In this document: positions 1,828 to 62,969 of the stretch, piece by piece
Layout: the number at the start of each line of letters is the position of its first letter
Position numbering within the stretch: position 1 is the stretch's first letter
Source: a candidate division WOR-3 bacterium
GTDB taxonomy: Bacteria > Hydrothermota > Hydrothermia > LBFQ01
Length of the DNA stretch: 64,000 nt
Assembly (NCBI GenBank): GCA_027050205.1
Contig: JALUCS010000093.1
Coordinates: 35,533-99,532 of the forward strand
Direction: 5' to 3'
Translations under genes and position numbers: made by a program
The notes under the pieces: model-generated
The model's input: the letters and a program-made list of their open reading frames with translations, nothing else
What the model was told of the DNA's origin: nothing
Database searches by the model: none

Positions 1828-2190
1828 ATGCAGGTTGATTTGCAGCGACTCCGCAGCGTAATAAGGGGGACGGGATGGGCGAAGTTCCTCGCCATAATGT
1901 ACTACATAGCCGCCGTCGGCTACATCCTCGGATGCGTCACCATCCCCTTCGGCATTATAACGATCATCTTGGGGATGAAACTCTGGAGTGCCGCCGACAA
2001 CTTGGACAGGTTGAAGTACAGCGATGACCCTACGGCCCTCTACGCCGCCCTTGATGACCTCGGCTCCTACTTCGTATGGTCTGGCATCCTCGTGGTCATC
2101 GGGATAATCCTGACTATCATATCCGTAATCGCCTTCGTCCTCTACTTCGCCACCTACATGCCCTCCCTCTACGACCTCTACAGCCTCTAA
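1828..2190 (+). CDS. DUF5362-like membrane protein
   Basis: GWAKFLAI and LDDLGSYFVWSG pattern, 3 TM segments; start moved to ATG 1828, 7 nt after TATAAT. Confidence 0.7.
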   Translation: MQVDLQRLRSVIRGTGWAKFLAIMYYIAAVGYILGCVTIPFGIITIILGMKLWSAADNLDRLKYSDDPTALYAALDDLGSYFVWSGILVVIGIILTIISVIAFVLYFATYMPSLYDLYSL

Positions 2191-2885
2191 AACCCCCTCG
2201 CCCGAAGGAAGACGTACGGCACCCCTTCGGCGTCCCTTATCGTCCCCATCTTATCGTACGGCCGGTAGCCCAGACCGGCGGTTAGGTCTCCCTCTTTACT
2301 CCGAAACTCCACCCCACCCTCCAGTTTCAGGCTACCCCTAACCCTCCTGTAGTCCCTCGCCGCGGCGACGGTCAAACTGACGTCTAAGAAGGCTGCCATA
2401 TCACCCTTGAGGGGGCGCCTGAACCTCCGGAAGGCGGAGAAGGCCGTCCCCCAATCCGCCCCCTGGGATAGGAACTTGTACCGGGGGTCGTAGAGGTACT
2501 GGGTTAGGGACACTTCGACGTCCCTCTCACGGTAGAGGAGTCGGAAAGCGTTCCAGTAGAGGGGGAGGGTGTCTAAGCGGTCTATGTAGTGGAAGCAGGT
2601 ATGCTCCAGAAAGAGGTAGCCCACCCCTTTGGCGAACTCCCGGAAGCCCCCAAGCCAGGCGTAGTAGTCGGCGTATATGGGGTCCAACTGTATGGGGCCG
2701 ACGTCGTATCCGAACCATACGACGAAATCTCCCCCGAAGGCCAGGCCGTACCTACCCCACCTGAAGGCTCTCATATAGCCGCCGATGTCGGCGAGGGCGC
2801 TCTTGTCCCTGTACCTGTAGGAGAACTTGGAGAAGGAGGCCCAAGCCTCGTGGTGCATATAGACGAAGGCGGTCAGGAGGAGCAT
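2187..2885 (-). CDS. Hypothetical, probable outer-membrane beta-barrel protein
   Basis: Aromatic-rich alternating strands, C-terminal F; ATG 2885 lies 6 nt after TACAAT. Confidence 0.55.
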   Translation of the reverse strand: MLLLTAFVYMHHEAWASFSKFSYRYRDKSALADIGGYMRAFRWGRYGLAFGGDFVVWFGYDVGPIQLDPIYADYYAWLGGFREFAKGVGYLFLEHTCFHYIDRLDTLPLYWNAFRLLYRERDVEVSLTQYLYDPRYKFLSQGADWGTAFSAFRRFRRPLKGDMAAFLDVSLTVAAARDYRRVRGSLKLEGGVEFRSKEGDLTAGLGYRPYDKMGTIRDAEGVPYVFLRARGF

Positions 2886-2945
2886 ACGGCTATTGTAGGG
2901 CCGCCACAACGACCCCTTTACCCCCTTATAATATCCACCTCAAAC

Positions 2946-3020
2946 GGGGACGTAGTTCAGCCCGGTTAGAACGCCGGCCTGTCACGCCGGAGGTCGCGGG
3001 TTCAAATCCCGTCGTCCCCG
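2946..3020 (+). tRNA. tRNA-Asp(GUC), CCA not encoded
   Basis: GGGGACG/CGTCCCC acceptor, anticodon arm CCGGC-CTGTCAC-GCCGG, TTCAAAT T loop; TATAAT at 2927-2932. Confidence 0.96.
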
Positions 3021-3021
3021 C

Positions 3022-5475: not shown

Positions 5476-5543
5476 AACCGGCGATTATACCTGTGTAGGG
5501 CGTTTGCATCGCCCCAACTTTCGGGCGTATAATAGCGGGTGCC

Positions 5544-6215: not shown

Positions 6216-6230
6216 GAGGAGGTTTAGGCA

Positions 6231-9013: not shown

Positions 9014-9015
9014 CT

Positions 9016-13141: not shown

Positions 13142-14083
13142 TCACCTTATCCCACGCTTCTTCAGTTTCCCCCTCAGCTCCTTTACCTCCCTCTGCCTGT
13201 ACCGGTCCTTCTCGGCGTTTAGGTACCAGAGGGCCTTATACCACGTACGGCGGGCCTCCTTCTCCTTTCCGGCTCCATACAGGCTCTCCCCCATGTAGTA
13301 CAGGGTTTCGGCAACGCACACCTTACAGCCGGGGTTCCTCCGCTTTATGTCCCGCCTTATCTCGTCGTAGGTCCTGTAGGCCTCGTTATACATACCGGCC
13401 TTGAGGTAGGCCTCGGCGAGGATCCACCGAAAGGTGCGGCTCTGCGGGTACATGGAGAGGGCCTTAAGGCCGTACTTTATGGCCTTACCCGGCTTGTTGT
13501 CAAAGATATACACGTAGACGAGGCCGGCGTAGGCGAGGGGTCTGGCCAGCACCCCCCGCTTCAGGACGACCTTTATCTTCCCTATCCCCTTACGCTTACG
13601 GGAGGAGGAGCGGGTCAGGTACCCGATGGCGTAGTCGTAAAGGCCTATAGGGAGAAGGGCGTCGTAGACGGTGGTGTCCTCACGGTAGGCCTCCCTGTAG
13701 AGGTTGAAGGCCTTGTTTCCGAGGGCGAGAGCCTTCGGGATGTCCCTCCTCCGGCCGTAGAAGACGGCCCCCATAGCCATGGTCGTGGCCAGGAGCATCT
13801 TCTCGCGGGTACTCTTGCGGGGTTTCCTCCCGTAGGCCGATATGAGGGAGTCCATCAGGGAGACGAACTCCCCGTAGCGGTAGTCGGTGTCGTTGTCGGC
13901 CATGTAGAGCTGGAGGTAGGCCAGTTTCAGGACGGACCACAGGAAGGGGTCCATCTTTCCCTTTAACGCCTTCAGGGACCTCTCAAAATCGGCGAACCTC
14001 TCCGTGTATAGGAGATGGGAGAGGGAGTCTATCGCCTTAACCTCGGCTCCCGTCAGGACGTAGGCCACCAGGAACATGCTCAC
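13142..14083 (-). CDS. Tetratricopeptide repeat protein, probably exported
   Basis: TPR-like helices (LAEAYLKAGMYNEA, YYMGESLYGAG); short hydrophobic N-terminus. Confidence 0.7.
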   Translation of the reverse strand: MSMFLVAYVLTGAEVKAIDSLSHLLYTERFADFERSLKALKGKMDPFLWSVLKLAYLQLYMADNDTDYRYGEFVSLMDSLISAYGRKPRKSTREKMLLATTMAMGAVFYGRRRDIPKALALGNKAFNLYREAYREDTTVYDALLPIGLYDYAIGYLTRSSSRKRKGIGKIKVVLKRGVLARPLAYAGLVYVYIFDNKPGKAIKYGLKALSMYPQSRTFRWILAEAYLKAGMYNEAYRTYDEIRRDIKRRNPGCKVCVAETLYYMGESLYGAGKEKEARRTWYKALWYLNAEKDRYRQREVKELRGKLKKRGIR

Positions 14084-21610: not shown

Positions 21611-22093
21611 TCAGAACTTCAGGGTTCGGGAGAGCTTTACGGGGTAGGGGATACTCTGCTTACCTACGAAGGGTAGGTTGAACTCCATGTAGGCCTTACC
21701 CTCCACTCCTACGTTCGCCCTCCGGGAGTTTATCACCCCCATTATCCGGTTCGCGGCCCCCTTGAGGTAGGAGTACCTGACGGATACGGTGATGGGTACG
21801 GTGGCCGAGGATCTGGCCTTTACCGTCCTCCCGAAGGTATTGGATACGTCCGCCACCTTTATGCCCTCCAACTTTACGCTGCCAACGAAGCGGTCCAGGA
21901 CGGCATCCACCGGGTTGGGATTCTGAACGGACAGGAGGACGTCCATAGAGAAGCCGCTCAAGCTTACGCTCTTCAGCCGGGCGCCCGCCAGGGAGAACTT
22001 ACAGTCCTTCAGGGCGACCCTCTTCTGGATGAGGGAGCAACCGGCGGTCAGGGCAGCCGCCGAAAAGAGGGCTAAAACTACGAAGGTGCGCAT
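21611..22093 (-). CDS. LEA type 2 / WHy domain lipoprotein
   Basis: Lipobox LTAGC; VQNPN motif. Confidence 0.85.
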   Translation of the reverse strand: MRTFVVLALFSAAALTAGCSLIQKRVALKDCKFSLAGARLKSVSLSGFSMDVLLSVQNPNPVDAVLDRFVGSVKLEGIKVADVSNTFGRTVKARSSATVPITVSVRYSYLKGAANRIMGVINSRRANVGVEGKAYMEFNLPFVGKQSIPYPVKLSRTLKF

Positions 22094-29378: not shown

Positions 29379-31355
29379 CTACCTCACCACGACCTTGAGG
29401 AGCCTACCTCCCGCCCTTACGAAGTAGACCCCCGGACGCTTCAGGGTGTAGGAGTCCTTGAAGCGGGCCACCAACCTACCGGATGCATCGTAGAGGACGG
29501 CGGAGCCTTCCACCTCAACCGTACGGCCCACAACCCTAACCGAAGAAGGGGGAGTGGAGGGGCGGGCCTCGGCTACCGACGTCATCTCACCGCACGTGTG
29601 GCCCGTGGCCACCTTCAGGAGGGTGTTGTTCCGGTCGTTGAGACTTACGAAGAGGAAGATGGGATCGTCGGGGGAGGTGCATTCCGGCCATACGTCCATA
29701 CCCACGACGAGGGGGAGGGAGTCGGCCTCTAAGAGGGTCCCACCGTAGGAAACCCTGAATATCTGGCTGACGTGCATTCCCCCGTAATACACCTCGTTGA
29801 GGGGCTTGAAGACGGAGATGTCTAGGAGCGTCCCCCCGGAGGCGTTGGGGAAGGTGCCGACCGTGTCTTTGGCGGCTACGTCTATCTTGTAGATGGAGTT
29901 GGACCCCTGTCCGTAAACTCCCCAGAGCAGCCCCGTGGATGCGTCCCAGTCCATACCGGCCATGTAGCCGCCGCTCTCAACGTTGGACCATACGTCAAGA
30001 CTGTCTACGAGGTTGCCGTTGCTGTCGTAGTATCCTATCACGCTCCCCGTGATGGAGGAGCCATCGTATCCGAAGTGGGAGACGTAGAAGCGGCCGTTCC
30101 CGTAGGCTATGCCCCAAGCGTAGTCGTCCCCGCCGAAGAAGGGATGGAGGCCCAGAGAGGACAGGTCCAAGGTGCCTGACGGGTCGTCGGGGTCAAAGGT
30201 CAAGACACCCCTCGGATTGAGGGAGACGACGTAGAAGTTGCCACTGTCCGGGACGTAGGTCATACCGGCGAAGCTGTATCCGCTCCCATCCCCTATATCG
30301 GGGAACTGCCACCTCCTTACCACCTCTCCGAAGAGGTAAACGGTGCGCACATAGGTTGAGGCCGTATCGTTGTAATGCACCGTATCCGCCGGCTCTACAG
30401 CCATTACCTCCACCCTATAGACCTTACTTGGCGAAGGGGTGAAGGGGTCAAAGGTCACCTCAACGGTGGAGGTCTCCGGTATGGCTACAGTCTGGGTATC
30501 GCTGAAGGCCAGGGTTGAGGAGGAGGTGTCGTAGACGTTCAGGATCACTGCCGTGGAGGTCGTGGGGACGAGTCCGCCGTTTTCCACCGTCGCCCTAAAG
30601 GATATGGGGGCAACATCTATGGGACCCGAAGGGGAGACCTCCAAGGCCCCTACGTTGTAGTCTATGGGGACGGGGTAGTAGAACATAATAACGGTACCGC
30701 TGTCGGGGATGTGGGAAGACGGGTTCCCGTTATAGACGTACTCCATATAGTAATCGTTGAGGGTGTCGGCTCCGGAGTTCTGGATACCTACGGTGGCGTC
30801 CCCGTAATCTACGGCGGAGTTGTACTGGAGCTTTATGTTCCCGTTGTCGTAGAGGATCACCTCAAAGTTCATCAACAGGCTCCCTCCAAACCTCGGTACG
30901 TTGTGCCACTCAACTACGGCGCAGGCTCCGGAGTACCCGTCGGGACAGGAGGAGAAGGACTGGAAGTATATGTCGTCAGCCCCAGAGCCGTTGGGGTTGA
31001 GGTCGTTCCACAGGGCAGCGATGAAACCGGCAGACGTGGAGGTGTAGGGTAGGGCGTAGTTGGAAAAGCCAAGGTATGTGCTTAAGTCCCGCAGGATCAC
31101 GGTTCCGTTGGAACATATGGAAATGGAGTCCGTTACCCCATCGTAGAAGGGGAAGGAGAAGCCGAGGTAGTAGAGTCTTGAAGCCGAGTACCCCGAACAC
31201 CAGTCGTCGGTAGCCCCCGTAGGGGTACCGGTGGTTGAGATCTCTATCCAGTTCATCACTACGGAGTCTCCGTCCTGCGTGGACCTGTACCTGTAGCCGT
31301 ACCCGTCCGGTCCGCCTGCGAGGGGTGTTATCCCTGCAAAGATAACGTTTAGCAT
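29379..31355 (-). CDS. Secreted multidomain protein (NIDO-like, CARDB-like, beta-propeller) with T9SS-like C-terminal tag
   Basis: GGPDGYGY, FSFPFY, IAALWNDL, VENGG; C-terminal LYDASGRLV...PGVYFVR; ATG 31355 lies 8 nt after TAAAAT. Confidence 0.7.
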   Translation of the reverse strand: MLNVIFAGITPLAGGPDGYGYRYRSTQDGDSVVMNWIEISTTGTPTGATDDWCSGYSASRLYYLGFSFPFYDGVTDSISICSNGTVILRDLSTYLGFSNYALPYTSTSAGFIAALWNDLNPNGSGADDIYFQSFSSCPDGYSGACAVVEWHNVPRFGGSLLMNFEVILYDNGNIKLQYNSAVDYGDATVGIQNSGADTLNDYYMEYVYNGNPSSHIPDSGTVIMFYYPVPIDYNVGALEVSPSGPIDVAPISFRATVENGGLVPTTSTAVILNVYDTSSSTLAFSDTQTVAIPETSTVEVTFDPFTPSPSKVYRVEVMAVEPADTVHYNDTASTYVRTVYLFGEVVRRWQFPDIGDGSGYSFAGMTYVPDSGNFYVVSLNPRGVLTFDPDDPSGTLDLSSLGLHPFFGGDDYAWGIAYGNGRFYVSHFGYDGSSITGSVIGYYDSNGNLVDSLDVWSNVESGGYMAGMDWDASTGLLWGVYGQGSNSIYKIDVAAKDTVGTFPNASGGTLLDISVFKPLNEVYYGGMHVSQIFRVSYGGTLLEADSLPLVVGMDVWPECTSPDDPIFLFVSLNDRNNTLLKVATGHTCGEMTSVAEARPSTPPSSVRVVGRTVEVEGSAVLYDASGRLVARFKDSYTLKRPGVYFVRAGGRLLKVVVR

Positions 31356-31422
31356 GACCCAGAATTTTAAACCGGATGTCGGAACTTTTGGCCGGGTGTA
31401 GCGGCTGTAAAATTTTCTCTCT

Positions 31423-35698: not shown

Positions 35699-35770
35699 CA
35701 CCTCCTAAACTCAATAGTACTTAACTTTATAGTGCAAAAAGTGTAAGTTTCCGGGATATACTACCCACTT

Positions 35771-37732
35771 ATGATGACGATTCTGCTCTTAACGCAGGAG
35801 ATAAGGATAGATACCACCTACATCTACAAGGGGAAACCCGTGGTCGTAATAGGGGAGGAGAAACGCTGGACGGAGGAGATGACCTACACCAAGACCTCCC
35901 CCTTCCGCATCCTTGAGAGGAACGGCATAGACATCATAAGGAAGGGGCCAGCGTTCAGCGCCGACGTCTACGTCTCCGGTTTCAAGGGCCACGACGTACC
36001 CGTCAGCATAGACGGTGAGAGGTTCTACAACGCCTGCCCCAACAGGATGGACGCCCCGACTGTGCGCATAAATCCCCTTGAAGTCTCCGTGATGCAGGTA
36101 AAGACCACCTCCACGTCCAACTTCACCGGTCTGGGGGGCGGCGTGATAGTGCATCGCCGTGTCCCTCCCAAGAAGCCTACCTTGAGGGCCTTCCTGATGG
36201 GAAACGCCCTCGCCTCCACCGGTGGGGATGCCGGAGTTTCACTTGAGGGGTTCAACCAGGGTCTCTATCTCCGCTTCACCCAGAGTACTCCCTACACCAC
36301 GGGTACCAACTACAAAGATGAGCGCTACAAGGGTGTTGCCGGAAAGAGCATAACGGAAGTCTACCCCTACATCCCGGACAGCTTCGCCGGTGCCAACAAC
36401 CTCTCCTACCGCGTCGTGGAGGCCACCTTCAACGGCAGGGCCATGGAGGGGCTTCTGGACTACGGCCTCCTGGCCAACTACTACGGTAAGGTCCTCTTCC
36501 CCTACCTCCTGATGGACGAGATCTACAGTAAGCAGATAGGGGGCCACGTCGCCTACATGGGCCACAAGGTCTACTTCAACACCCTCCACCACTATATGAC
36601 CAACGAGCTGCGTAAGTCCCTCGGTATGATGTTTATGAGTACGGACGCCTACGTCCTTAATGCCGGTATCACCAACCCCAACTTCCCCCTCTTCGGCTAC
36701 GAGGTCTTCTACAGGAAGTGGTGGGCCTACAACAAGATAAAGCCCAAGATGATGCCTGATACCATAAAGAACCACATGCTCCCCAACCTCCAGGTAGCCC
36801 AGGCCGACCTGAACCGTACCTTCACCTTTGAGGGTATCCCCGGCCTCTCCCTCTCCCTAAAGGGAGGTCTAGCTTACTACTTCATATCCCCCGACGAGAA
36901 CTACGACCCTGCGGTTATGATGAAGCTCAAGGCCGTAGACCCCAACGCCAAGAAGGGTAAGCCCTTCCCCATCTTCAACCTCGTGAGCCGCTACAACCTC
37001 TCCACAGCCCTGGCGGGTGTGTTTGAGCTGGCGGCGGAACCTCCGGACCCGGAGTACGTCTATATAAACGTCAAGAAGCCTATGGGCAAGCCCTGGTGGG
37101 TGGGGAACTACTCCCTGAAGTGCGGTAAGAAGGTGGGCGGCCGCTTAGAGCTTACCCCCACGCTCGGTGATTACGGACTCAACCTCAACTTTGACCTCTA
37201 CTCCTACTTCGTTAAGGACCAGAGCTACCTGACGAAAGTCAAGAGGGAGATAAACATGAACGGTACGCCTACGACGGTCGTCATCCAGACCTACAAGAAC
37301 GTAGACGAGGTCCTCGCTGGGTACAGGTTCAGGCTAAGCTGGAGGGAGATGGTGGCCCTGACCTCCACCTACACCTACGCCCAGAACCTGACGGACAAGG
37401 TCCCCTTCGCCGAGACCCCGCCCCTGATGGTGGGTCTGGACCTCTCCACCCCCAGGCTCTACGGCTTCAAGGCTGGTCTCTCCTTCATATGGAACGACGC
37501 CCAGACCCGCGTGGACACCATCCTAAACGAGAAGCCCACGACCTCGTGGTGGAGGAGCGACCTGTCCCTTGAGTACTCCTACAGGAACTTCACCGCCAAA
37601 CTGGAGATAGACAACCTGACCGATAACCTCTACTACCGCCACCTCTCCTACATGCGCAATCCCTTCGCCTCCGGCATGCCCGTCTACGAGCCGGGTCGCA
37701 CCTTGAGGCTGACCGTTTCTTACGGAATGTAA
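35771..37732 (+). CDS. TonB-dependent receptor, OprC-like (putative copper)
   Basis: ACPNRMD CxxxM plug motif, Met-rich loops, DNLTDNLYYRHLS, EPGRTLRL C-terminus. Confidence 0.85.
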   Translation: MMTILLLTQEIRIDTTYIYKGKPVVVIGEEKRWTEEMTYTKTSPFRILERNGIDIIRKGPAFSADVYVSGFKGHDVPVSIDGERFYNACPNRMDAPTVRINPLEVSVMQVKTTSTSNFTGLGGGVIVHRRVPPKKPTLRAFLMGNALASTGGDAGVSLEGFNQGLYLRFTQSTPYTTGTNYKDERYKGVAGKSITEVYPYIPDSFAGANNLSYRVVEATFNGRAMEGLLDYGLLANYYGKVLFPYLLMDEIYSKQIGGHVAYMGHKVYFNTLHHYMTNELRKSLGMMFMSTDAYVLNAGITNPNFPLFGYEVFYRKWWAYNKIKPKMMPDTIKNHMLPNLQVAQADLNRTFTFEGIPGLSLSLKGGLAYYFISPDENYDPAVMMKLKAVDPNAKKGKPFPIFNLVSRYNLSTALAGVFELAAEPPDPEYVYINVKKPMGKPWWVGNYSLKCGKKVGGRLELTPTLGDYGLNLNFDLYSYFVKDQSYLTKVKREINMNGTPTTVVIQTYKNVDEVLAGYRFRLSWREMVALTSTYTYAQNLTDKVPFAETPPLMVGLDLSTPRLYGFKAGLSFIWNDAQTRVDTILNEKPTTSWWRSDLSLEYSYRNFTAKLEIDNLTDNLYYRHLSYMRNPFASGMPVYEPGRTLRLTVSYGM

Positions 37733-38552: not shown

Positions 38553-39539
38553 TCACTTCTCCTCCAACTTCAGTATGTCCGTTATCTTCACCCCCACCTG
38601 CGCCCCGCCGGAGAAGACGCTGCCGGTACGTTTGGCCTCAAGGCGCTTCTTATCCAGTTCGTAGGCCTCGTCGGGAAGCTCAACGTACCCGACGTCCCTT
38701 ATGAGGTTTTTCACATTAGTGAGATAGTAATCCACGAACTTCTTCACGTAGGGCTTCGTCTCGTAGGACTTCTTATTGACATAGATGAAGAGGGGTCGGG
38801 AGAGGGGTACGTACTTGCCGCTTACGACGTTCTCAACCGTAGGCATTACAGGGCCGTTCCCTCCGTCTATCGGCACGGCCTTCAGCTTGTCCTTGTTCTC
38901 AAGGTAGTAAGCTAGGCCGAAGTACCCCAGGGCGTACTTATCGGAGGCCACCCCTTGGACGAGGACGTTGTCGTCTTCGGAGGAAGTGTAGTCTCCCCTG
39001 CTGGCCCCCTCCTTCCCGACTATGGCCTTGGTGAAGTAGTCAAAGGTTCCGGAGTCTACGCCGGGGCCGTAGAGGTGTATCTCCTTGTCCGGCCATCCCT
39101 CCCTTATCTGGCTCCACTTCGTTATCTTCCCTTGGGATTCGGGCGCCCAGATCTTCCGCAGTTCCTCTACGGTCAGGTAGTCCACCCACGTGTTGTCGGG
39201 GTTGACGACGACGGTTATGGCGTCGTACCCTATGGGTAGCTCGTAGAACTCTATGCCGTTCTTCTTGCACAACTCCAGCTCCGTCGGCTTTATGGGGCGG
39301 GAGGCGTCGTTTATGTCCGTCTCACCCCTGCAGAACTTCTTGAAACCCCCACCCGTCCCCGATATCCCGACGGTCACCTTGATGTCGGGGTTGTCCTTCT
39401 GGAACTCCTCGGCTACGGCCTCGGTTATCGGATACACGGTTGAAGAGCCGTCTATGGAGACGACCTTGGTCCTCCTGGACTTCCCGCACCCGGAGAGGAG
39501 AGCCAGGACAGCAGCCGCAAGCAGAAACTTCCTCATCAT
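38553..39539 (-). CDS. pstS: Phosphate ABC transporter substrate-binding lipoprotein
   Basis: Lipobox [41 protein letters not shown]. Confidence 0.95.
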
Positions 39540-39553: not shown

Positions 39554-40576
39554 TTAAAACTTCGCCTCCGTATGGAGGCTAACCGTGGGGGTTTTCCCCT
39601 CCTTCCACCTGTAAGAGAGGGCTGCCCGGAGGTTGTCGCTAAGCCTGTAGGAGATGCCCCCTATGACGGTGTGAGCCGTATAGTTGGCCATGAGGTCGTA
39701 CCTGCCGAATAGGTTTAGATGCCCCTTGAGGAGGTGAAGGACGGCGAACGCAGACGCCCCTTTCGTGTAGGATCTGTAGGACGTCGTATAGTGCGCGTGG
39801 GTGAGCATCAGGGTCAGAGGGGTGGTCTTCAGGCTAAGGCCGGCGATGTACCTGTCCTTAAAGCCCAGGCCCTCCGTGGTCGTGTGGGCGAAGGCGTGTA
39901 TGCCCAGGAGGTCGCCGAAGCCGAAGAGGGCGGACGGATATACGGAGAGGCGGCCCATGACGTCCTTGTGGGGGTCGCTCTCAAGTTCCTTGTAGCCGTT
40001 CCCGTTGTATATACCGGCGTTGAGGTCCCACGGAAGCTGTTTGCACTTGTATATCAGGGAGGCTCCCATATCGGCTGTGTATTCCAAACCGGCGAGGTCG
40101 TAGGCCGTCTTCTCAACGAAGCGATGGCCCCAAAGCCCCTCCTCAAGCCCCGTCCATACCGTCGGGATGACCCCGAAGCGGAGGGTTAAAGAGCGCTTGT
40201 CGCTCTTCAGAGCCTTCCACTGGACGTAGGCGTGCTTCAAATACACGGCGTAGGCGCTCTTCTTTGAGGTCTCACCCACGAGTTTCGTCAGGGGGGCGAC
40301 GTCCGTCGTGAAGCGTATCAGGATGTCCCCTCTCCTGAACTTCGTTATGATATACATACGGTCCACGTAGAAGCCGTTCTCGTAGGGGGAGGAGGTGCCG
40401 ATGCTGTACCTTAGGTAGGTCTTCCCGCCGAACTTGAGGTTGCTTTCTTCCATAGAATTTTTAAAAGGACGAACCCTGCGTACCTGATGGACCGGTATGG
40501 TCTTAACCTCCGATACCTTGAGCCTTACAGTTCCCTTTAGGGTATCAACAGGGAAACCGATCATTAGGGCAATCAT
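39554..40576 (-). CDS. Outer-membrane porin (phosphate-porin-like)
   Basis: [24 protein letters not shown]-terminal F; upstream of pstS. Confidence 0.7.
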
Positions 40577-49804: not shown

Positions 49805-51721
49805 CTATCCCTCTCCGGCTTTCCGCTCGTCGCTAAGGCTCTCCAAGACCGCTCCCCCTATGGCGGCCGTGTTGAAGTTCACCCTCTCCATATCGGAGAG
49901 GAGGTCCAGATACACCTCCCCCGACTGGGCGTTGGATACGTCTATCCTCGTGTAGAACTCCTTCCTCTTGCGGTCAAGGAGGGCCTTCACCTCCTTTGCC
50001 CTCGCCAGAAGTTCCTTGGCCTTCTCCGGGTCCCAGGTCGTGAGGACGACCATAGCGAGGGCGAGGGTCTTCATAACCTCCGAGTGCATCTCCTTTATTC
50101 CGGACAGCTCCTCCTCCGTTAGGCTTATGCCCTCCTTGTACAACTTCTCAACGTTCCGCACGATGGACTTAGAGATTATGTCGCCTATGTTTTCAATCTC
50201 CTCCATTATCTGGGCGAGGGCCACCACCCGCTTGCCCGTCTCCCCCGTCAGGCCGTGGGCCATCACCTTTGAGACGTAGGCGTTTATGGTCTCCTCCGCC
50301 CTGTCTATCTCGTCGTCCATGCTGGCCACCCTCTCAAACACGGCCGGACTCCGGGTCCTTATCGCCTCGTACACGTCCTGAAACATCCTCATAGCGACGT
50401 TGAGGGCGTCGGATATGACCTTCTCCATATAGACCAACAGGAATTCGGGGTCATCGTATATCACGGCGCGGGAGACCCTCTCCTTTATCGGAGACTCCAT
50501 CCTCCAGAGGGAACGGACGTAGGTCAGGGGTACGACTATGGCGGCGAAGAGGAGGTTGTAGTATATGTGGGAGAGGGCTATGTTCTTACTCAAGTCCCTC
50601 ACCCATATGGCCAGCGAGGGGGCGTAGGGGACGGTCGGCAGGAGGGCGAGGGAGAGGGCCGTCCTTCCGAGTAGGTTTATCAGGGCGACCCTACGGGCCA
50701 CCCGCGAGAGCTGGGCGGAGGCCAGTACGGCCGTGAAGGCTGTCCCTATGTTGGCGCCGAGGACGACGGCCAAGGCTCCGGGGAAGGTTATTATCCCGGC
50801 GAAGGCCATGGAGAGGGCTATACCTATGGTTAGGGCGGAGGAATGCACCAGGGCGGCGAAGACCGCCGAGGTGACCAGCATCAAGAGGACGTTGTTGGAG
50901 ATATCGTGGATGAAGGCGATGACGTAGGGGATGGAGGACATATCGGCGAAGGTGCTTCCCATCTGCCATATTCCGAAGAAGGCCAGACCGAAGCCGAAGA
51001 GGGCGCGGCCGTAATGCTCGTAGACCTGCGTAAACCTCTCAAGGTAGTACCCCAGGGCCATCATTACGATGGCGACGTAGGTGAAGCCGAGGGACAGGAT
51101 ACCTACCGTGAAGGTGGTACCCACCCCCGCCCCGGCGTTCATGGCCATGGCGGAGGCCGGCGTGAGGAAGCCGAGGTCGGTTAGGGAGACCACCATAACC
51201 GTAACGGCCGTGGAGGACTGGAAACCGAGGGCTGCTATGAGGCCACCGAGGGCGGCTAAGAGGGGACTCCGGGATAGACGGGTGAGTAGGGTCCTCGTCC
51301 ATCCCCCTACGGCTCTCATTATACCCGTTGAACCCCGATTGAGGCCAAACATAAAGAGGACGAACCCCCCCAGAAGCTCCAAAAGCTTAACTATCCAGTA
51401 GTTCTTCCGCAGTATCCTCCCTCTGAAAGTCAGGGAGGTGTCCTCCGTGGATGCCACGATCCTGACACGGGAGGGTTTGAGGGGTTTAGGCGGTTCGTAC
51501 ACCGCCGTACTGTCGGCCCCCACCCGCACCCTTCGGAGGTCTATCGTATCCCCCATATAGGTGAAGGAGACCTCACACCCCGGCCCGCTCTTAACCCGTA
51601 CGGGCTTGAACCTCTCCCCCACCGTAACCACCTGGTTGTCCCCGGAGAGGTCCACGTTGTAGAGGGTGTCGTACACCCTAAAGAGGGGACACCCCACACC
51701 TACGAGCGACAGCAGGAGCAT
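49805..51721 (-). CDS. Na/Pi cotransporter with PhoU-like C-terminus and extra N-terminal domain
   Basis: QSSTAVT, HSSALT, GANIGT repeats; DDEID..E and IENIGD PhoU motifs. Confidence 0.9.
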   Translation of the reverse strand: MLLLSLVGVGCPLFRVYDTLYNVDLSGDNQVVTVGERFKPVRVKSGPGCEVSFTYMGDTIDLRRVRVGADSTAVYEPPKPLKPSRVRIVASTEDTSLTFRGRILRKNYWIVKLLELLGGFVLFMFGLNRGSTGIMRAVGGWTRTLLTRLSRSPLLAALGGLIAALGFQSSTAVTVMVVSLTDLGFLTPASAMAMNAGAGVGTTFTVGILSLGFTYVAIVMMALGYYLERFTQVYEHYGRALFGFGLAFFGIWQMGSTFADMSSIPYVIAFIHDISNNVLLMLVTSAVFAALVHSSALTIGIALSMAFAGIITFPGALAVVLGANIGTAFTAVLASAQLSRVARRVALINLLGRTALSLALLPTVPYAPSLAIWVRDLSKNIALSHIYYNLLFAAIVVPLTYVRSLWRMESPIKERVSRAVIYDDPEFLLVYMEKVISDALNVAMRMFQDVYEAIRTRSPAVFERVASMDDEIDRAEETINAYVSKVMAHGLTGETGKRVVALAQIMEEIENIGDIISKSIVRNVEKLYKEGISLTEEELSGIKEMHSEVMKTLALAMVVLTTWDPEKAKELLARAKEVKALLDRKRKEFYTRIDVSNAQSGEVYLDLLSDMERVNFNTAAIGGAVLESLSDERKAGEG

Positions 51722-52105: not shown

Positions 52106-52106
52106 C

Positions 52107-55946: not shown

Positions 55947-55969
55947 AATACTATAACGGAGGTAAGGGT

Positions 55970-56419: not shown

Positions 56420-56422
56420 GGT

Positions 56423-57013
56423 ATGGTCATAGACGTAAGCAAGCGGGAGATAAACGTTAAGATCGTCTATTACGGGCCGGCCGTAAGCGGCAAGACCACC
56501 AACCTGATCGTCATCCACAGGAGGCTCAAGCCGGAGCATCGGGGCGAGATGGTGTCCATAGATACCAAAGGGGAGCGTACCCTCTTCTTCGACTTCCTCC
56601 CCGTGGAGGTCAAGATAGGTGGAGGGTTCAAGGTCCGTTTCCACCTCTACACCGTACCGGGCCAGTACTTCTACAAGACCTCCCGTAAGTTGGTCCTCCG
56701 CGGGGCGGACGGGATAGTATTCGTAGCCGACTCCCAGAGGAGTAGGGCCAGAGACAACAAGATAATTTGGGAGGAGATGAAAGAGTTCCTGGAGGGCCAG
56801 AATACGTCCATCTACGATATTCCGGTAGTCCTCCAGTACAACAAGAGGGACCTTCAGGACATAATGACGGTTGAGGAGATGAACGCCCTGTTTGAGGGTG
56901 GGAAGTTTCCGTACTTTGAGGCCATAGCCGTACAGGGGAAGGGCGTGTTTGAGACCTTGGACGAGATCTCCAAGAGGGTCCTTAGGAGCGTCCTCCAGAA
57001 GGCTCGCGTATGA
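56423..57013 (+). CDS. mglA: MglA-family small GTPase
   Basis: KIVYYGPAVSGKTTN, ERTLFFD, TVPGQ, NKRD, EAIA. Confidence 0.95.
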   Translation: MVIDVSKREINVKIVYYGPAVSGKTTNLIVIHRRLKPEHRGEMVSIDTKGERTLFFDFLPVEVKIGGGFKVRFHLYTVPGQYFYKTSRKLVLRGADGIVFVADSQRSRARDNKIIWEEMKEFLEGQNTSIYDIPVVLQYNKRDLQDIMTVEEMNALFEGGKFPYFEAIAVQGKGVFETLDEISKRVLRSVLQKARV

Positions 57014-58293
57014 TACACCTCAACAGCCTCATATCGGCCCTGAAGGAACCGGTACTCGTACTGGACAGGGAGCGCACCATCATAGAGGCAGGAGGGGGGA
57101 TAGGGGAGATGGGGTACAGGCGGGATTTCCTCGTCGGTAAGTCCATAGATGCCTTAGTTGCTCCCCCCTTCAGGAGGCCGGTGGAGGCTACGATAGATAC
57201 GGCCTTCCGTCTGGGTAAGCCCACGTCGGCCAAGGTGGAGATCCTCAACGCCTCCTCCGAGTCCATCCCCGTTGAGATGAGGGTAAGTCCGTTAGAGGAC
57301 AAGGGACACGTACGTTTCGCCGTCCTCCTCTACCCTAACAGTCGTCTGGATTACGACCTCTTGAAGTCGCTGGACGTACCCGTGTGGATAACCGACAGGA
57401 AGGGGAACCTGATATTCCGGAACGATAGGGCGGCCCGCATCCTACAGGAGGTGCGGAACCTCCTACCGGAGAACGGCCAGGAGGTGAGGGTGGGAGAGGA
57501 GGAGTTCATCGCCAAGGTGAGGGAGGTGGTGGACGGCTTCCGGAGGGTGAGGCTGGTGGTCTTAACGAGCGTCTGTGCTGCCTACAACCCCTACATAAGG
57601 AAGTTCGCCGTGGCGGGTATTCTATCGGCCCTCGTATCCCACGACGTCAAGAACGCCATAGCCTCTCTGATGCTCCTTACGGACCTTATAGAGGACGAGT
57701 CCCTAAAGACCCGCATCTACAACGGCATAAGGAGGGTCTATCACATCCACCAGAGGATCCTGAACCTCGCCCGTGGGAGGAAGGAGTTGGAGGAGGTCCC
57801 CCTAAAGGACGTATTGGAGGACGTGGAGGAGGACCTGCGTCCCAAGCTCATACGGAAGAACGTCAAGATAGTTAGGGACTTCCCGGAGGATTTTACCATC
57901 CGTACCGATAGGAACGCCCTCTACGAGATACTCCTAAACCTCGTCTCCAACGCCATAGACGCCTCCACCCCCGGCGGTGAGGTCATCGTGTCGGCCGGGG
58001 TCTCCCACAACGTCTCCCTCGGTAGGTTGGAGAGGTACGTGAGCGTCAGGGACTTCGGTCCGGGGATCCCACCGGAGAGGGTCCGCAGGATCTTCAACCT
58101 GTTCTTCACCTCCAAGAGGGAGGGGTCGGGTCTCGGCCTGTTCATAGTTAAGACCTTGAGCGAGAGCATAGGGGCGAGGGTGTCGGTCAGGAGCGAGCCG
58201 GGGAAGGGGGCGGAGTTCGTCGTTTTCTTCCCGGAGGATGAAGCTAAAGGATCTAACGGGGTGTCTGGTGCAGGACCTTCGGGATCTTCTTGA
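57010..58293 (+). CDS. Cytoplasmic PAS-PAS histidine kinase
   Basis: SHDVKN H box, NLVSNAIDA, DFGPGI, FFTSK, GSGLGL; no TM segment. Confidence 0.9.
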   Translation: MIHLNSLISALKEPVLVLDRERTIIEAGGGIGEMGYRRDFLVGKSIDALVAPPFRRPVEATIDTAFRLGKPTSAKVEILNASSESIPVEMRVSPLEDKGHVRFAVLLYPNSRLDYDLLKSLDVPVWITDRKGNLIFRNDRAARILQEVRNLLPENGQEVRVGEEEFIAKVREVVDGFRRVRLVVLTSVCAAYNPYIRKFAVAGILSALVSHDVKNAIASLMLLTDLIEDESLKTRIYNGIRRVYHIHQRILNLARGRKELEEVPLKDVLEDVEEDLRPKLIRKNVKIVRDFPEDFTIRTDRNALYEILLNLVSNAIDASTPGGEVIVSAGVSHNVSLGRLERYVSVRDFGPGIPPERVRRIFNLFFTSKREGSGLGLFIVKTLSESIGARVSVRSEPGKGAEFVVFFPEDEAKGSNGVSGAGPSGSS

Positions 58294-58990
58294 GGTCGCC
58301 TCCCGTATCTTGGGTAAGAGCGTAGCCCTCCTTACGGTAGAGGATTTGAGAGGTATAGAACTGGCGAAGGTCTTAGACGTCTTCCTCTCCCATCCCAAGG
58401 GGTACCCCGTCCCCTACATCGTGCGCGAGGTGGCCTTTTACGGGCGGTCGTTCTACGTGGACAGCAGGGTCCTGGTGCCGAGGAGCGAGACGGAGGAGTT
58501 GGTGGATATAGTCCTGTCCCTCGGAGTGAGGCCGAGGAGGATAGCCGACGTAGGTACGGGGAGCGGCGTCCTGGGTATAACCCTCAAGCTACTCTTCCCG
58601 GATAGTACGGTGATCCTGACCGACCTGTCCGTAGGGGCGCTCCGGGTTGCCAGGATCAACGCCCGAAGGCACGGGGCGGATGTCCTCTTGGTGGCGACGG
58701 ACCTCCTGTCAGCCCTGCGGGGTGGGTTAGACCTGATCGTTAGCAATCCCCCGTACGTCCCCGAAGATGAGGTTGGACGGTACGATAGGAGGGTCCTCTA
58801 CGAACCGCGGGAGGCCTTAGTAGGAGGGAGGACGGGCTTTGAGATAACGGAGAGGCTCATAGGTCAGTCTATGGAGAGGCTCACACCGGGGGGCTACCTG
58901 ATCCTAGAGAGCGACCCGTCCCACTTCCACAGGTTCCCTCCGGGTACGGAGTTCGTCGGTAGGTTCGCCATCCTACGGAGGTCAGGGTAG
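58238..58990 (+). CDS. prmC: Release factor glutamine methyltransferase
   Basis: VLVPRSETEELV, DVGTGSG, SNPPY, EP..AL. Confidence 0.9.
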   Translation: MKLKDLTGCLVQDLRDLLEVASRILGKSVALLTVEDLRGIELAKVLDVFLSHPKGYPVPYIVREVAFYGRSFYVDSRVLVPRSETEELVDIVLSLGVRPRRIADVGTGSGVLGITLKLLFPDSTVILTDLSVGALRVARINARRHGADVLLVATDLLSALRGGLDLIVSNPPYVPEDEVGRYDRRVLYEPREALVGGRTGFEITERLIGQSMERLTPGGYLILESDPSHFHRFPPGTEFVGRFAILRRSG

Positions 58991-60058
58991 GTATTTCGTG
59001 GGGTCTACGGCCTTCCTGCCGGAACCCATTCTGACCTCAAAGTGTAGGGGCCTCCTGCCCACCGTCCCTATCTTCTGGCCCTTTTTGACCCTCTGGTTGA
59101 GCCTGACTGTCACCTTTCGGAGGTTGGCGTAGACGGTGAAGAACCCGTCGTGTTCAAGGATCACTACCTCACCGTACCCCTCTAACCTCCCGGCATACAC
59201 CACCTTGCCACCCTCGGCCGCCACGACCTCCGCCCCGTAGGGGGCGGCTACGTCTATCCCCGAACTCTTCAACCTGACCCCGTAGCGGGGGTCGGTGTAG
59301 TACCCGAAACCCCTGACCACCCTACCCCTAACCGGCCACATCAACTTACCCTTGGGTTTGGCCTTCTTTCCCGACCTTATCTTCTTACTTCTCTTGGCGA
59401 GTTTCTTGAGGATTCCCTCCAGACGTTTCGCCCTCGCCTTGAGGCGGGAGACGTACCTTTCCTTCTCCCTCCTGCTTCTCCTTATCTTCCTAACCGTCTC
59501 CTTCAACTCCCTCTCTGTGCGCTGTATCTCCACGAGGGTACTCTCCTGCTCGGCTATGTTCCCCTCTATCTGTTGGAGCAGTTCCTCCCTCCTCCGCTTC
59601 CACCACCGGTGGTCCCGACGGAAGCCCTCTATCTGCAACAGGGCGTTCCTGTACGCGTGGAGGGTGGCCTCCGTAACGGTGGCCCTCTCGTAGATGGCGT
59701 AGGAGCCGCGGGGGTTGAAAATGGCCGCCCACACCGAGGGTACCCTTAGGATGTATAGGAGGTTTATACCCGCCCTTATCTTCCTTAGGAGGGATTCCTC
59801 CTCCCTACTCAACTCCTTCAGTTGCCTATCCGTGAAGCTCAACCTGATCCTTAGCACCCTCTCCTGCTCCTTCAGGACCTGCAGGTAGTTCTCAAGCAGC
59901 TCCCTCTTCCTCTCGTAAAGCTCCACCCTCCCGACCAGATCCCTCTCCCTCCTCTTGAGCCGCTCTATCTCCCTGCTCACCCTCCTTATCTCCCCCTTTA
60001 TCGCCCGCAGCTCCCTCGCGTAGCCCTGGACGGAGTTTCCTAAGACGAACAGAAGCAT
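58982..60058 (-). CDS. envC: EnvC-like coiled-coil M23 protein
   Basis: Coiled coil then WPVRG, SSGID (no HxxxD His), YANL, LHFEVR. Confidence 0.85.
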   Translation of the reverse strand: MLLFVLGNSVQGYARELRAIKGEIRRVSREIERLKRRERDLVGRVELYERKRELLENYLQVLKEQERVLRIRLSFTDRQLKELSREEESLLRKIRAGINLLYILRVPSVWAAIFNPRGSYAIYERATVTEATLHAYRNALLQIEGFRRDHRWWKRRREELLQQIEGNIAEQESTLVEIQRTERELKETVRKIRRSRREKERYVSRLKARAKRLEGILKKLAKRSKKIRSGKKAKPKGKLMWPVRGRVVRGFGYYTDPRYGVRLKSSGIDVAAPYGAEVVAAEGGKVVYAGRLEGYGEVVILEHDGFFTVYANLRKVTVRLNQRVKKGQKIGTVGRRPLHFEVRMGSGRKAVDPTKYLP

Positions 60059-60059
60059 A

Positions 60060-60767
60060 CTACTGCCTTCGGAAACCCTCCGGTACCCTGAACTTTTCGG
60101 ACGGTATCTCCAGGCGTTTTACGGAGACGCGAGTCACTTTTGTGAGGCTACCGCCGAAGGGTGTGAAGGTCACTATGGGGGCGCCGTACTTCTTGAGGAT
60201 CCCCTTTAGGAAGGGAGTTAGATCAGTGAGAATGGCACGGGACTCCGGGGAGTTCAAGGTCCGTTTGGTGAACTCGTTCAGGAAGTTGAGCCGTACCATC
60301 TCCGCCCTGTACAGGGCCTTCCAATCCTTCACGAGCCACCCCTCAACGCTGTCGGGCATAGCCTGTCCCATCGTGGCGAGGAGGCCCTTTAGGTTCCTTA
60401 GGTAGTATATCACCTTCCTCGCCCTGTGGCCGTTTATGGTGCGGTACTCGTCCGTCGGTTTCAGGACCGACCTGTCGACCTCACACTTCCTCCCTCCGTT
60501 GTCGCACCTTACGAAGAGGGCGAGGTAGGCCGTCCCGAAGGTGGAGGCCATGGAGGATATGTCCGTATAGGTCTTATCCCTTAGGTTGAGGGTGTGGGCC
60601 TCTATCCCCTTCCCCTTTACGCGGAGGATTACGACCGTCCCCGTCTTTGGGAACTCTATCCTAAGGGCCTTCTCCGTGATGTAGGTTATCTGGGTGTCCC
60701 TCTCCTCCCCCCTCTCCACCACCTCCACCATCTTGTAGCCCACCAAAGCAGCGATTACGGTAAGCAT
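60060..60767 (-). CDS. Hypothetical exported protein (DUF4412-like)
   Basis: LRIE, KTY, T.EYRTING..ARK, F.VPEGF motifs. Confidence 0.65.
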   Translation of the reverse strand: MLTVIAALVGYKMVEVVERGEERDTQITYITEKALRIEFPKTGTVVILRVKGKGIEAHTLNLRDKTYTDISSMASTFGTAYLALFVRCDNGGRKCEVDRSVLKPTDEYRTINGHRARKVIYYLRNLKGLLATMGQAMPDSVEGWLVKDWKALYRAEMVRLNFLNEFTKRTLNSPESRAILTDLTPFLKGILKKYGAPIVTFTPFGGSLTKVTRVSVKRLEIPSEKFRVPEGFRRQ

Positions 60768-60788
60768 AGAGGGTATTTTAAGGTTTTC

Positions 60789-62969
60789 CTACCGGCGTAT
60801 GACCTTGAGGACCCTCCTGGTATCCCCGGCTCGCAGGACGAGGAAGTACGTCCCTCTACCTATGTTGGACGTCGGTTTCAGGTCGTACCTGCCGGGGGTT
60901 AGGTAGCCGAGGGTCTTCTTGGCGACGAGCTTCCCGGAGGGGGTGTATAGGGCGTACCCGACGTACGTCCCCTTACCGAGGGTGAGCCTTACGGTACCAC
61001 CGAGGACCTCAACGTCCCAGCCCGCCTCCCTTTCGCCGACGGCCAATTCGTCGTCGCCTCCGAGGGGACACTCCACCCTTATGACGAAGGCGTCGGTCAC
61101 GGCCGTGGTCCCGAAGGTGGGGGGCAGGAACTCCGTAAAGTTCCAACCGGCCCCCGTCCAACCCGTTATGTAGGCCGGGCATAGGGAGTCTATGGCGATG
61201 ATGTCCTCCGCCCCGTCCTCCTCGCTGCTCTTGAAGACGTAGGTGATTATGTGGGTGGTCATATCCGGTGTCAGGGCCGTCATAAAGGCCTCGCCGTTCC
61301 CGGAGTAGGAGCCGTACTGGAAATCTACCCTGCTGGGGGCTATGTCGGAGCTGAAGGTCTTCCCTACTAGGAGTACGTCCCCGCTGGGGTCCGCATCCAC
61401 GCCGTAGGCGTAGTCGGCGTCGCTGCCCGCTACTATGGCCGTCGCTACGTGGATGGAGAGGTCGTTGGAGAGCTTTGTAACGAAGGCCTCGTACCCCCCA
61501 GGGGTACCGAAGATCGTCCTACTTGGGGCGTAGGAGGAGTAGTCACCGGTGTATCCGCCGAGGAGGACGTTGCCGGAGTTGTCAAGGTCCATATCCCAGG
61601 CGTAGTCCCAACCGGAGCCGCCCACAACTGCTACGGCGTCTATACCGGACAGGTCCAAGGGCAACTTTACGGCGAAGACGTCCTCACTGCCGGTCGTACC
61701 GAAGACGGTACGGGAGGGGCCGAAGTTCGCACCGTCGGAGGTGGACCCTCCAACGAATATGGAGGAGGAGTCGGTGTCTATCCCCCTAACCCAGTCCATT
61801 CCCGGCCCGCCGAAGATCACCGTCCGTACGTGGGTGGACAGGTCGGTGGAAAGTTCCGTGACGAAGGCGGAGAACACCCCACCGGGGGAACCGATGATGC
61901 TCCTTGAAGGGGCGAAGGTGTAGACGTCTCCCGTGGAACCGCCGACGTAGACGTGTCCCCCGACCACCACGACGTCCCAAGCGAAGTCGTCGTCCGTACT
62001 GGATATGACGGCCGTACCGAGGTGGGTGGAGAGATCCGGGGAGAGTTTGGTAACCGTAGCCTGAAGGGGGGATTGAGGTCCCATCAGGACGCGGGAGGAG
62101 GAGTAGTTCTCCCCGTCCTCGCTCATACCGACGACGAAAACGTTCCCGTAGGAATCCACGGTCAAGCCGTAGGCGAAGTCGTTCTGGGGGCTACCTATTA
62201 TGGCCGTCGCTATGTGGGTGGAGAGGTCGGGCGATAGCTTGGTGACGAACACGTCCGTGTTTCCGGTGTCCCCGAAGACGGTACGGGAGGGGGCGAAATC
62301 CACCGCCCTGTCGGTGTATCCGGCTATGACTACGTTTCCGGAGGGGTCAAGGGCTATGTCCCTCGCGAAGTCGTCCCCTCCCCCTGCAACGAGTACGACG
62401 GCTATGGGGTCTACGACCACCTCCCCACCCTTGGGCCTATTCCCGAGGATGACGAGGAGGCTGTCTCCGGAGGTGCGGAGTTTCAGGGGTACGTCCCGTA
62501 CGGACTCAAAGGCCCGGAACTTCCCGAAGATTACCGTCGTCTTCCCCCTTGACACCTTGAGGTGTCCCCCCTCGTAGGAGAGGTGGGCGCCCGGAAATCG
62601 GAGTACCAAGGTATCCGGTGAGTCCTGGGATAGGAAGATCTGGACCTCAAGGCTGTCGTAGCCTACCGCCGTAAGGAGGAGGTCCGTTCCCCTCGCTACC
62701 CCCTCAAGGCGCACAGCCCGGAAGGTAGGGATGCCGGAGAACTCAAGGTCGTCCTTGAATACGCTGAAGGTCGCACCGGTAGGTCCCTCCCCTCTCACCT
62801 TCACCTTCCCGCCGGGTGCGGTGAGACGCACGTCCCCCATCACTACATCGCCACCCCTAAGGACGTAGATGCCGAAGGGATGGATGCTGTGGAAGGCTAC
62901 CTCCCCGTCCATCTGCCCCCTGTTCCCTACGAACTCCGTCCGGAAGGTTAGGGAGATAAGCAGGAGCAT
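60789..62969 (-). CDS. SBBP-repeat beta-propeller protein with T9SS-like C-terminal tag
   Basis: FVGNRGQ...VVVDP N-domain, about 7 repeats of ~63 aa (FVTKLSPDLSTH), C-terminal LYTPSGKLV...GTYFL; ATG 62969 lies 9 nt after TACAAT. Confidence 0.8.
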   Translation of the reverse strand: MLLLISLTFRTEFVGNRGQMDGEVAFHSIHPFGIYVLRGGDVVMGDVRLTAPGGKVKVRGEGPTGATFSVFKDDLEFSGIPTFRAVRLEGVARGTDLLLTAVGYDSLEVQIFLSQDSPDTLVLRFPGAHLSYEGGHLKVSRGKTTVIFGKFRAFESVRDVPLKLRTSGDSLLVILGNRPKGGEVVVDPIAVVLVAGGGDDFARDIALDPSGNVVIAGYTDRAVDFAPSRTVFGDTGNTDVFVTKLSPDLSTHIATAIIGSPQNDFAYGLTVDSYGNVFVVGMSEDGENYSSSRVLMGPQSPLQATVTKLSPDLSTHLGTAVISSTDDDFAWDVVVVGGHVYVGGSTGDVYTFAPSRSIIGSPGGVFSAFVTELSTDLSTHVRTVIFGGPGMDWVRGIDTDSSSIFVGGSTSDGANFGPSRTVFGTTGSEDVFAVKLPLDLSGIDAVAVVGGSGWDYAWDMDLDNSGNVLLGGYTGDYSSYAPSRTIFGTPGGYEAFVTKLSNDLSIHVATAIVAGSDADYAYGVDADPSGDVLLVGKTFSSDIAPSRVDFQYGSYSGNGEAFMTALTPDMTTHIITYVFKSSEEDGAEDIIAIDSLCPAYITGWTGAGWNFTEFLPPTFGTTAVTDAFVIRVECPLGGDDELAVGEREAGWDVEVLGGTVRLTLGKGTYVGYALYTPSGKLVAKKTLGYLTPGRYDLKPTSNIGRGTYFLVLRAGDTRRVLKVIRR

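Follow-up and report, generated by a model that had tools for sequence, protein, structure and literature searches.

A 64,000-nucleotide window from the genome of a heat-loving candidate division WOR-3 bacterium (GCA_027050205.1, contig JALUCS010000093.1, positions 35,533 to 99,532 of the forward strand) carries nine genes whose proteins were proposed, in an original prediction made from the sequence, to begin with ultra-short, uncharged leaders that act as a non-canonical export signal. Eight of the nine N-termini lie exactly where they had been placed. The TonB-dependent receptor (653 amino acids; 35771..37732, plus strand) opens with MMTILLLT (35771-35794) followed by Gln. As had been argued, an in-frame TAA at 35744, eight codons above the ATG, blocks extension of this protein, and a -10-like hexamer, TATACT (35757..35762, plus strand; score 4.9), sits 8 nucleotides 5′ of the ATG, which gives a near-leaderless start. 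The receptor label is borne out by four TonB models, all matching below cut-off, and by homologues that carry PF00593. Encoded on the minus strand, a phosphate-porin-like protein (340 amino acids; 39554..40576) begins with MIALMIG; it resembles Porin_O_P (feature score 0.97), lies immediately upstream of pstS, and has homologues that likewise begin with short leaders (4/4).

The other seven leaders and two lipoprotein controls are also encoded on the minus strand. An EnvC-like coiled-coil and M23 protein (58982..60058; PF01551 match, NF008644 below cut-off) starts with MLLFVLG and has no other start codon ahead of an in-frame stop. A 235-amino-acid protein (60060..60767) starts with MLTVIAALV, preceded by a -10 box TAAAAT at 60775-60780 and an in-frame stop seven codons upstream; it had been called DUF4412-like, a label that is not supported, as the protein matched no family. 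The SBBP β-propeller protein (60789..62969), whose label agrees with its family match and which has a weak C-terminal tail of the type IX secretion system (T9SS) kind, starts with MLLLISLT behind TACAAT at 62979-62984. Two further proteins match no family: one of 658 amino acids (29379..31355; leader MLNVIFAG, TAAAAT at 31364-31369) that ends in VVR, a tail typical of the T9SS-tail proteins of this genome, and one of 232 amino acids (2187..2885; leader MLLLTAFV, TACAAT at 2892-2897) with a C-terminal Phe. The Na/Pi cotransporter (49805..51721), also identified correctly, has the leader MLLLSLVG, an in-frame stop three codons upstream, and about 95 soluble residues ahead of its first membrane helix. 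Such an N-terminal soluble domain is unusual for a protein of this type, and Cys11 in its LVGVGC stretch might mark a lipobox preceded by 10 uncharged leader residues. Finally, a TPR-like protein (13142..14083), for which the family label is weak, begins with MFLVAYVLT (ATG at 14077) or with MSMFLVAYVLT; the latter is the start originally given and is present in the sequence, but it requires a GTG at 14083, two codons before the ATG. PstS (38553..39539) and an LEA_2 protein (21611..22093) carry canonical signals with a lipobox at the places indicated, and thus serve as internal controls.

Most of these starts had been described as fixed by an adjacent -10 box. Boxes scoring above 5 precede four of the nine genes, the receptor box falls just short at 4.9, and TAGAAT/TACTAT is visible, unscored, before the porin, but the EnvC-like, Na/Pi and TPR genes have no box and lie close behind upstream genes. 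For five genes (those for the receptor, the porin, the EnvC-like protein, the 235-amino-acid protein and the Na/Pi cotransporter), there is no in-frame ATG, GTG or TTG before the upstream stop, and the possible upstream extensions of the other four add no hydrophobic core.

To place these genes in a wider setting, we used the 2.05-Mb host assembly (93.5% complete), in which a home-made dicodon model called 1890 genes; 1692 complete genes of at least 100 amino acids form the genome-wide set. We take the genome to be WOR-3: of the 80 relatives listed for its GatB, two stand apart, at 77% (labelled Thermotogota bacterium) and 65% (Ca. Caldipriscus sp.), with the remainder at about 36-54%, and one homologue of the TonB receptor bears the name Ca. 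Hydrothermae. The short-leader class was defined by an uncharged hydrophobic start, with Lys and Arg excluded at positions 2-7, in a protein lacking a membrane helix. This class contains 230 of the 1692 genes, and a stricter rule applied genome-wide returned 198 short, 61 canonical-like and 88 lipoprotein-like starts. The short-leader phenomenon is therefore real and extends beyond the 64-kb window.

The positions of promoter elements help to fix these starts. At each position from 6 to 9 nucleotides ahead of the first ATG, 6-15% of 1196 genes have a TANNNT box, compared with about 1% at internal ATGs, and because of this enrichment many mRNAs are probably leaderless or nearly so. A -10 matrix built from these boxes exceeds a score of 5 at just 10 of 8712 internal ATGs. 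About 45% of genes (851/1890) have a -10 box 6-10 nucleotides ahead of the start codon, in many cases extended upstream by CCCT/CCTT, and leaderless mRNAs thus appear to be widespread in the genome. At least one of three features marks 210 of the 230 short-leader genes: a -10 box (149 genes), a Shine-Dalgarno site (39) or an in-frame stop less than 10 codons upstream (112). Another start codon is present within 25 codons in 54 genes, and none of the extensions listed gives a hydrophobic core. True starts lying further upstream, which would have refuted the prediction, were accordingly not encountered: stops and -10 boxes render the starts non-extendable.

These data bear on the concern that the leaders are artefacts, either of mis-called starts or of a preference for U/C-rich codons at the beginnings of leaderless mRNAs. 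The gene caller is imperfect and missed the start of the porin, leaderless genes are more common in the short-leader class (149/230) than among others (659/1462), and cytoplasmic false positives make up about 7% of the class. Nevertheless, we regard an artefact as hardly credible given the nearby stops, the lack of any added hydrophobic core at the 54 alternative starts, and the 39 genes at which a Shine-Dalgarno site takes the place of a -10 box, as well as two observations presented below.

We used T9SS-type C-terminal domains as an export label that is independent of the N-terminus. The 67 matches were reduced to 59 after removal of eight repeats in one gene, and 56 of these were mapped to genes. 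The strict short-leader rule was passed by 30 of these 56 genes compared with 233 of 1757 others (Fisher p=3e-12), and the enrichment persists among leaderless genes (21/35 versus 137/816, p=3e-8), which is difficult to explain by an artefact of leaderless starts; paralogues are not independent in either comparison. When judged by eye, the 56 genes comprise 38 with short leaders, 10 with canonical signals, one lipoprotein, one doubtful case, and six fragments or mis-starts, such that canonical signals for signal peptidase I (SPase I) are also kept in this genome. In a Pfam sample of 92 of the 230 short-leader proteins, drawn from the 20 regions with the most such proteins and sorted by our own judgement, 33 have no family, whereas the 59 with a family comprise 42 envelope-type proteins (FadL, TolC, TonB receptor, SprA, LolA-like, amidases, PCuAC, FG-GAP and others), 13 that are ambiguous (TPR, ankyrin, peptidases), and four that are cytoplasmic. 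As predicted, then, it is families of exported proteins that carry the short leaders, and these include BamA, SurA and Skp.

Several short-leader proteins merit separate mention. An 1851-amino-acid SprA_N protein, similar to the T9SS translocon, has a short leader (G000:C56:13258-18810, minus strand; L328:5210-10762), and it supports the presence of a type IX-like system in WOR-3, as do a C25 peptidase and the T9SS-tail genes, of which there are about 60. A protein that we read as YajC-like (locus L234; G000:C132:21828-22148, minus strand) has the leader MLNVLIG, then QQ, ahead of a membrane helix. Near-identical 210-amino-acid paralogues that start with MLLYLLS-QPVELEG and belong to no Pfam family are spread over contigs C109, C114, C126 and C101.

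Comparison with orthologues reveals that the short leaders stand in the place of ordinary signals. In an alignment of 51 TonB receptors, leaders of 6-9 residues and canonical signals of 18-25 residues both end before the same D-T/S mature motif, and short and canonical Skp signals share the same register before a conserved K-I/V-G/A-F/Y-I-D strand. The Skp N-terminus could be read in 60 of the 62 genomes of the class, which we infer to be Hydrothermia. In the family of this genome (f1), all 11 Skp proteins have a short leader of eight residues ending in Ser/Ala/Thr and then Gln, a degree of conservation that is again not expected of an artefact. Short leaders of seven residues are present in 5 of 7 genomes of family f2, the other genus being canonical, and stretches of 11 and about 12 uncharged residues are found in both genomes of f4 (2/2) and of f11 (2/2), respectively. 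The eight other families of the class are canonical throughout (38/38). Ser/Ala/Thr precedes Gln in all 18 short Skp leaders of f1, f2 and f4, which form one clade in the SecY tree (98/94), and at -3 most canonical Skp signals in the phylum carry Leu/Ile/Val, like the short ones. The eight-residue form of Skp is also present in the genome of a Ca. Caldipriscus sp. Open frames for WOR-3 Skp span 310-390 codons, about twice the usual length, indicating an extra C-terminal part (L114-L143).

BamA was readable in 28 of 30 genomes. All 14 readable BamA leaders of the class, whose genomes lack the signal recognition particle (SRP; see below), are at most 14 residues long, some of them read from GTG or TTG starts and three of them with one Lys; leaders of 8-11 uncharged residues occur in 5 of 9 SRP-bearing genomes, and none of five genomes from a second SRP-less clade has a short leader. 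Pooled loci, a crude count that includes marker genes, one duplicate and some membrane anchors, give ratios of short to canonical-like starts of 21:4 in f1, f2 and f4 (104 genes), 8:37 in the rest of the class (202), 4:28 in the second SRP-less group (138) and 14:31 in SRP-bearing genomes (219). By these counts, short signals are tolerated across WOR-3 and dominate in f1 and the families closest to it. The core of the original prediction, that exported proteins carry a non-canonical minimal signal, holds: the leaders are real, have fixed starts, replace normal signals where orthologues are canonical, and belong to proteins for which export is obligatory.

The leader typically consists of Met, about five hydrophobic residues (positions 2-6 mostly Leu/Ile/Val/Phe) and Ser/Ala, so that a hydrophobic h-region is present, 5-6 residues long and with a mean hydropathy of 2.3-3.3 at positions 2-6. 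Across the 230 leaders, residue 7 is Ser in 21% and Ala in 16% (37% together), and residue 8 is Gln in 13% compared with a background of 1.5%, an 8-fold enrichment although a minority overall. Gln at positions 6-12 is present in 60 of the 230 short-leader genes versus 124 of 1462 others (p=1e-12). At these 60 Gln-defined sites, Ser/Ala comes before Gln in 40 and the leader has its modal length of seven residues in 31. Residue -3 is Leu in 34 and Phe in 10 of the 60, rather than the small residue of an A-X-A site, a preference that the selection rule itself biases toward hydrophobic residues. Lys/Arg amount to 0% at positions 2-7, by selection, and 2-3% at positions 8-9; the positive n-region is thus lacking, also on orthologues whose relatives have one. 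Residues 8-17 are net negative (-0.44 versus +0.19 in other genes, p=2e-10), whereas residues 26-45 are alike in both sets. The combination [GAS]C occurs within the first 18 residues in 8 of 230 leaders, only one of which (MMFIYLLTTFAGC) resembles a true lipobox, and with no Arg at positions 2-7 in any of the 230 there is no twin-arginine (Tat) motif. We read this pattern as a predicted cleavage site followed by a Sec-compatible mature start. The earlier statement that no AxA site is present is therefore literally true, but it does not extend to an absence of any cleavage site, because there is strong enrichment of Ser/Ala at -1 and of Gln at +1.

A reading in which the leaders target proteins to Sec yet stay uncleaved, passing through or remaining as a weak membrane tether since they are short and uncharged, has some appeal. 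A helical heptamer presumably could not put its cleavage site at the periplasmic face, and in many cases the residue after the leader is Pro, Asp or Thr, not Gln. We nonetheless judge it distinctly unlikely, because Ser/Ala-then-Gln is enriched at the very register at which canonical orthologues are cut, a feature that would be purposeless without cleavage. In addition, other bacteria have Skp and SurA as soluble chaperones.

The original prediction included altered recognition by SRP among its possible explanations, and this almost universal particle proved to be absent altogether. A full-length SRP54-domain match was found in neither this genome nor 59 others of the class (0/60 for both Ffh and FtsY); the best E value was 3e-7, and true matches score 1e-63 or better. 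This search scored no more than 15 candidates per genome, but fully scored repeats, including TIGR00959 in five genomes, agree. The SRP54-less genomes include 99-100% complete assemblies in 3-4 contigs, and tblastn with Ffh and FtsY of relatives returned no match in this genome. SRP RNA was detected in 0 of 46 genomes of the class, in 0 of 13 from seven other families, and in 78 of 82 remaining genomes. Strong Ffh/FtsY matches are also lacking in 21 genomes of other classes. Matches near E 1e-40 in f19, f23 and f27 were rejected as FlhF, which lies between flhA and flhG-like genes at the four loci read, and the neighbours of ffh differ among six ffh loci read. The second SRP-less group comprises f13, f19, f23, f25, f26, f27, f28 and f34, with SRP RNA having been searched in all but f34. 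Six of these families form a separate clade in the SecY tree (100/99; midpoint rooting only), which suggests a second loss. There were probably two independent SRP losses in WOR-3, one of them spanning the whole class.

It is tempting to conclude that SRP loss caused the shortening, by freeing signals from having to be long or sorted against SRP. All lineages with short Skp signals fall inside the SRP-less class, and all 14 readable BamA starts of the class are short. But the BamA comparison fails in both directions, with 8-11-residue uncharged leaders in 5 of 9 SRP-bearing genomes and in none of five from the second SRP-less clade, and Skp is canonical in eight SRP-less families (38/38). SRP absence thus does not track short signals across the phylum; we consider a causal role unlikely and rejected it, SRP loss being at most a permissive factor.

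Instead of SecA or LepB, a dedicated, undescribed chaperone, receptor or peptidase might deal with the short leaders. One and the same cell uses both short and canonical signals, and with SRP gone another targeting route for membrane proteins must exist. However, the same orthologues show a continuum of intermediate lengths (7, 8, 9, 11, 12 and 14 residues, carrying no Lys or a single one), as would be expected from one tolerant machine, and the genome has a single LepB, making a separate factor very unlikely.

The known export components were inspected for divergence. LepB, the enzyme for which altered recognition had been suggested, is ordinary: it is present in a single copy with one membrane helix and an ordinary catalytic region. 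An altered binding pocket was considered and rejected, given that the equivalents of F84, I86, S90, M91, I144 and K145 are ordinary, L95F is confined to this genus, and I97P is class-wide. SecY is present in the genome. By E. coli numbering, Arg replaces its S405 in transmembrane helix 10 (TM10) in all 16 class members and in none of 14 others, always together with Asp/Glu at 197 (TM5; A197 in E. coli), and the pair may form a compensated salt bridge near the plug (L082, L204-L233). At the pore-ring position I187, f4 keeps Ile, but Ala/Ser is found in f1, f2, f5 and a single SRP-bearing genome; f1 has a degenerate R255-R256-Y258 loop, and I278, I408 and the plug are intact. E. coli prlA suppressors include L407R, I408N and I278N (PMC11494458), and because L407R and I408N mark prlA sites, Arg405 serves as a lead and nothing further.

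SecA has no match in this assembly. We rejected SecA loss and treat the absence as an assembly gap because relatives have the protein: it is present in 198 of 201 phylum genomes and in 6 of 6 of the same genus, in two of the six as weak partial matches. A conserved SecA Glu (E560 in E. coli, by our own count on the alignment) is Gln/Asn in four f1/f2/f4 sequences and Glu in 16 others, and the stretch holding the acidic residues that bind the n-region does not align with E. coli. SecA shows other clade-specific changes besides that at E560, and its preprotein-binding domain has a large insertion that is common across WOR-3 (L162, L163, L167, L168). Loss of formylation, by which a free N-terminal amine would replace the n-region, was also rejected, as Fmt and Def are both present.

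We therefore consider it probable that the leaders are minimal Sec/SPase I signals cut down to about their last seven residues, used alongside canonical and lipoprotein signals, with cleavage and route deduced from sequence. By this account, the basic n-region and most of the h-region would have been lost, leaving Met, about five Leu/Ile/Val/Phe residues and Ser/Ala at -1, often with Gln at +1. SecA would bring the chain to SecYEG, because no SRP exists, and the leader would be drawn wholly into the lateral gate or the outer leaflet, since a helix of this length could not span the membrane and no side chain of the leader is charged. A leader of this length should be unable to hold its N-terminus in the cytoplasm as a helix, and its lack of charge would fit burial or carry-across. 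Cleavage would follow the small residue at about position 7, the leader being about as long as the P7-P1 stretch bound by LepB. In a model of the E. coli enzyme, subsites S7 to S6′ hold an extended substrate from P7 to P6′ (PMC2259416), and the whole leader would thus equal the non-prime footprint. Lipoproteins would keep full signals because Lgt and LspA need a membrane-spanning anchor. Short signals, tolerated throughout WOR-3, became predominant in f1 and in the families nearest to it.

A bolder version, to which we assign somewhat less than an even chance, posits a distinct SRP-free mode of Sec export. The uncharged seven-residue leader would enter a relaxed (prl-like) SecY head first while being the whole P7-P1 substrate of LepB, and one heptapeptide would hold the targeting and cleavage information for most of the exported proteome, including the essential BamA.

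Several points weigh against the proposal of minimal Sec/SPase I signals. Phe, found at -3 in 10 of the 60 Gln-defined sites, is disfavoured at this position by E. coli LepB. The S1/S3 residues of LepB are ordinary, and no LepB or SecY change maps exactly to the short-signal clade, Arg405 being class-wide and the I187 changes patchy. SecA is absent from the assembly, as described above. A search of the 93.5% complete assembly for glutaminyl cyclase gave no PF05096-type match and two M28 matches (a 563-amino-acid protein and one that is weak). Lastly, by textbook rules a Sec signal cannot do without a positive n-region and a minimal h-region (PMC5875014).

Elsewhere in the window, Roadblock-like and small-GTPase-like genes, of MglB/MglA type by our own reading, adjoin a PAS-type sensor gene (54654-58293).

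With the short leaders, Sec signals gain a variant that is real, previously unreported and open to mechanistic tests. Neither ultra-short signals nor SRP loss in WOR-3 was found reported in the literature covered, from which subscription journals are mostly missing, and the accessible part of PMC9360617 describes no natural signal shorter than these. If the proposal is correct, the lower limit for natural signal peptides would be reset to about seven residues, the n-region and a membrane-spanning h-region would be dispensable for a whole secretome, and hundreds of natural sequences could be used to test directly both the loop model for the insertion of signals and what the n-region does. Signal predictors probably miss short-leader proteins, so WOR-3 envelopes are likely mis-annotated. 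The two free-living SRP-free lineages would also offer new models for SRP-free insertion of membrane proteins. One WOR-3 strain is in culture (PMC12285271). This strain, sy37, groups with Ca. Caldipriscus and Ca. Hydrothermae by 16S, and the words "signal" and "secretion" are absent from the main text of that report as available (PMC12285271).

Four known systems invite comparison. Canonical Sec/SPase I signals consist of n-, h- and c-regions with A-X-A (PMC5875014). The WOR-3 leaders resemble them in being N-terminal, with a hydrophobic core, a small -1 residue, an acidic early mature region, the same substrate classes, and LepB and SecY present, but they have about 7 rather than about 20 residues, no basic n-region, no separate c-region and a large -3 residue. 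The Q-rule of Bacteroidetes (PMC5837995; PMC10653852) is similar in that Gln is enriched right after the predicted cleavage site and the cargo has T9SS-type tails. Unlike the Bacteroidetes case, where more than 60% of sites have Gln in P. gingivalis and signals are full-length, the WOR-3 preference is weaker (60/230, 26%, with Gln at positions 6-12), the leaders are short and no cyclase was found by PF05096, although cyclisation can be spontaneous (PMC5837995). Like E. coli prlA mutants, WOR-3 SecY is changed near the same sites (Arg at 405 in TM10 in 16/16 of the class; Ala/Ser at I187 in this genome's own family), whereas I408, I278 and the plug are intact and Arg405 also occurs in families whose Skp signals are canonical. 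Finally, Leptospira, Dehalococcoides and SAR86 are known to have lost SRP, and for these the accessible part of the source reports no ultra-short signals (PMC4758666). As in those bacteria, Ffh, FtsY and SRP RNA are all missing from the WOR-3 lineages, and Sec and signal peptidase are kept; in contrast to them, the SRP-less WOR-3 lineages make up a whole class and a second clade of one phylum.

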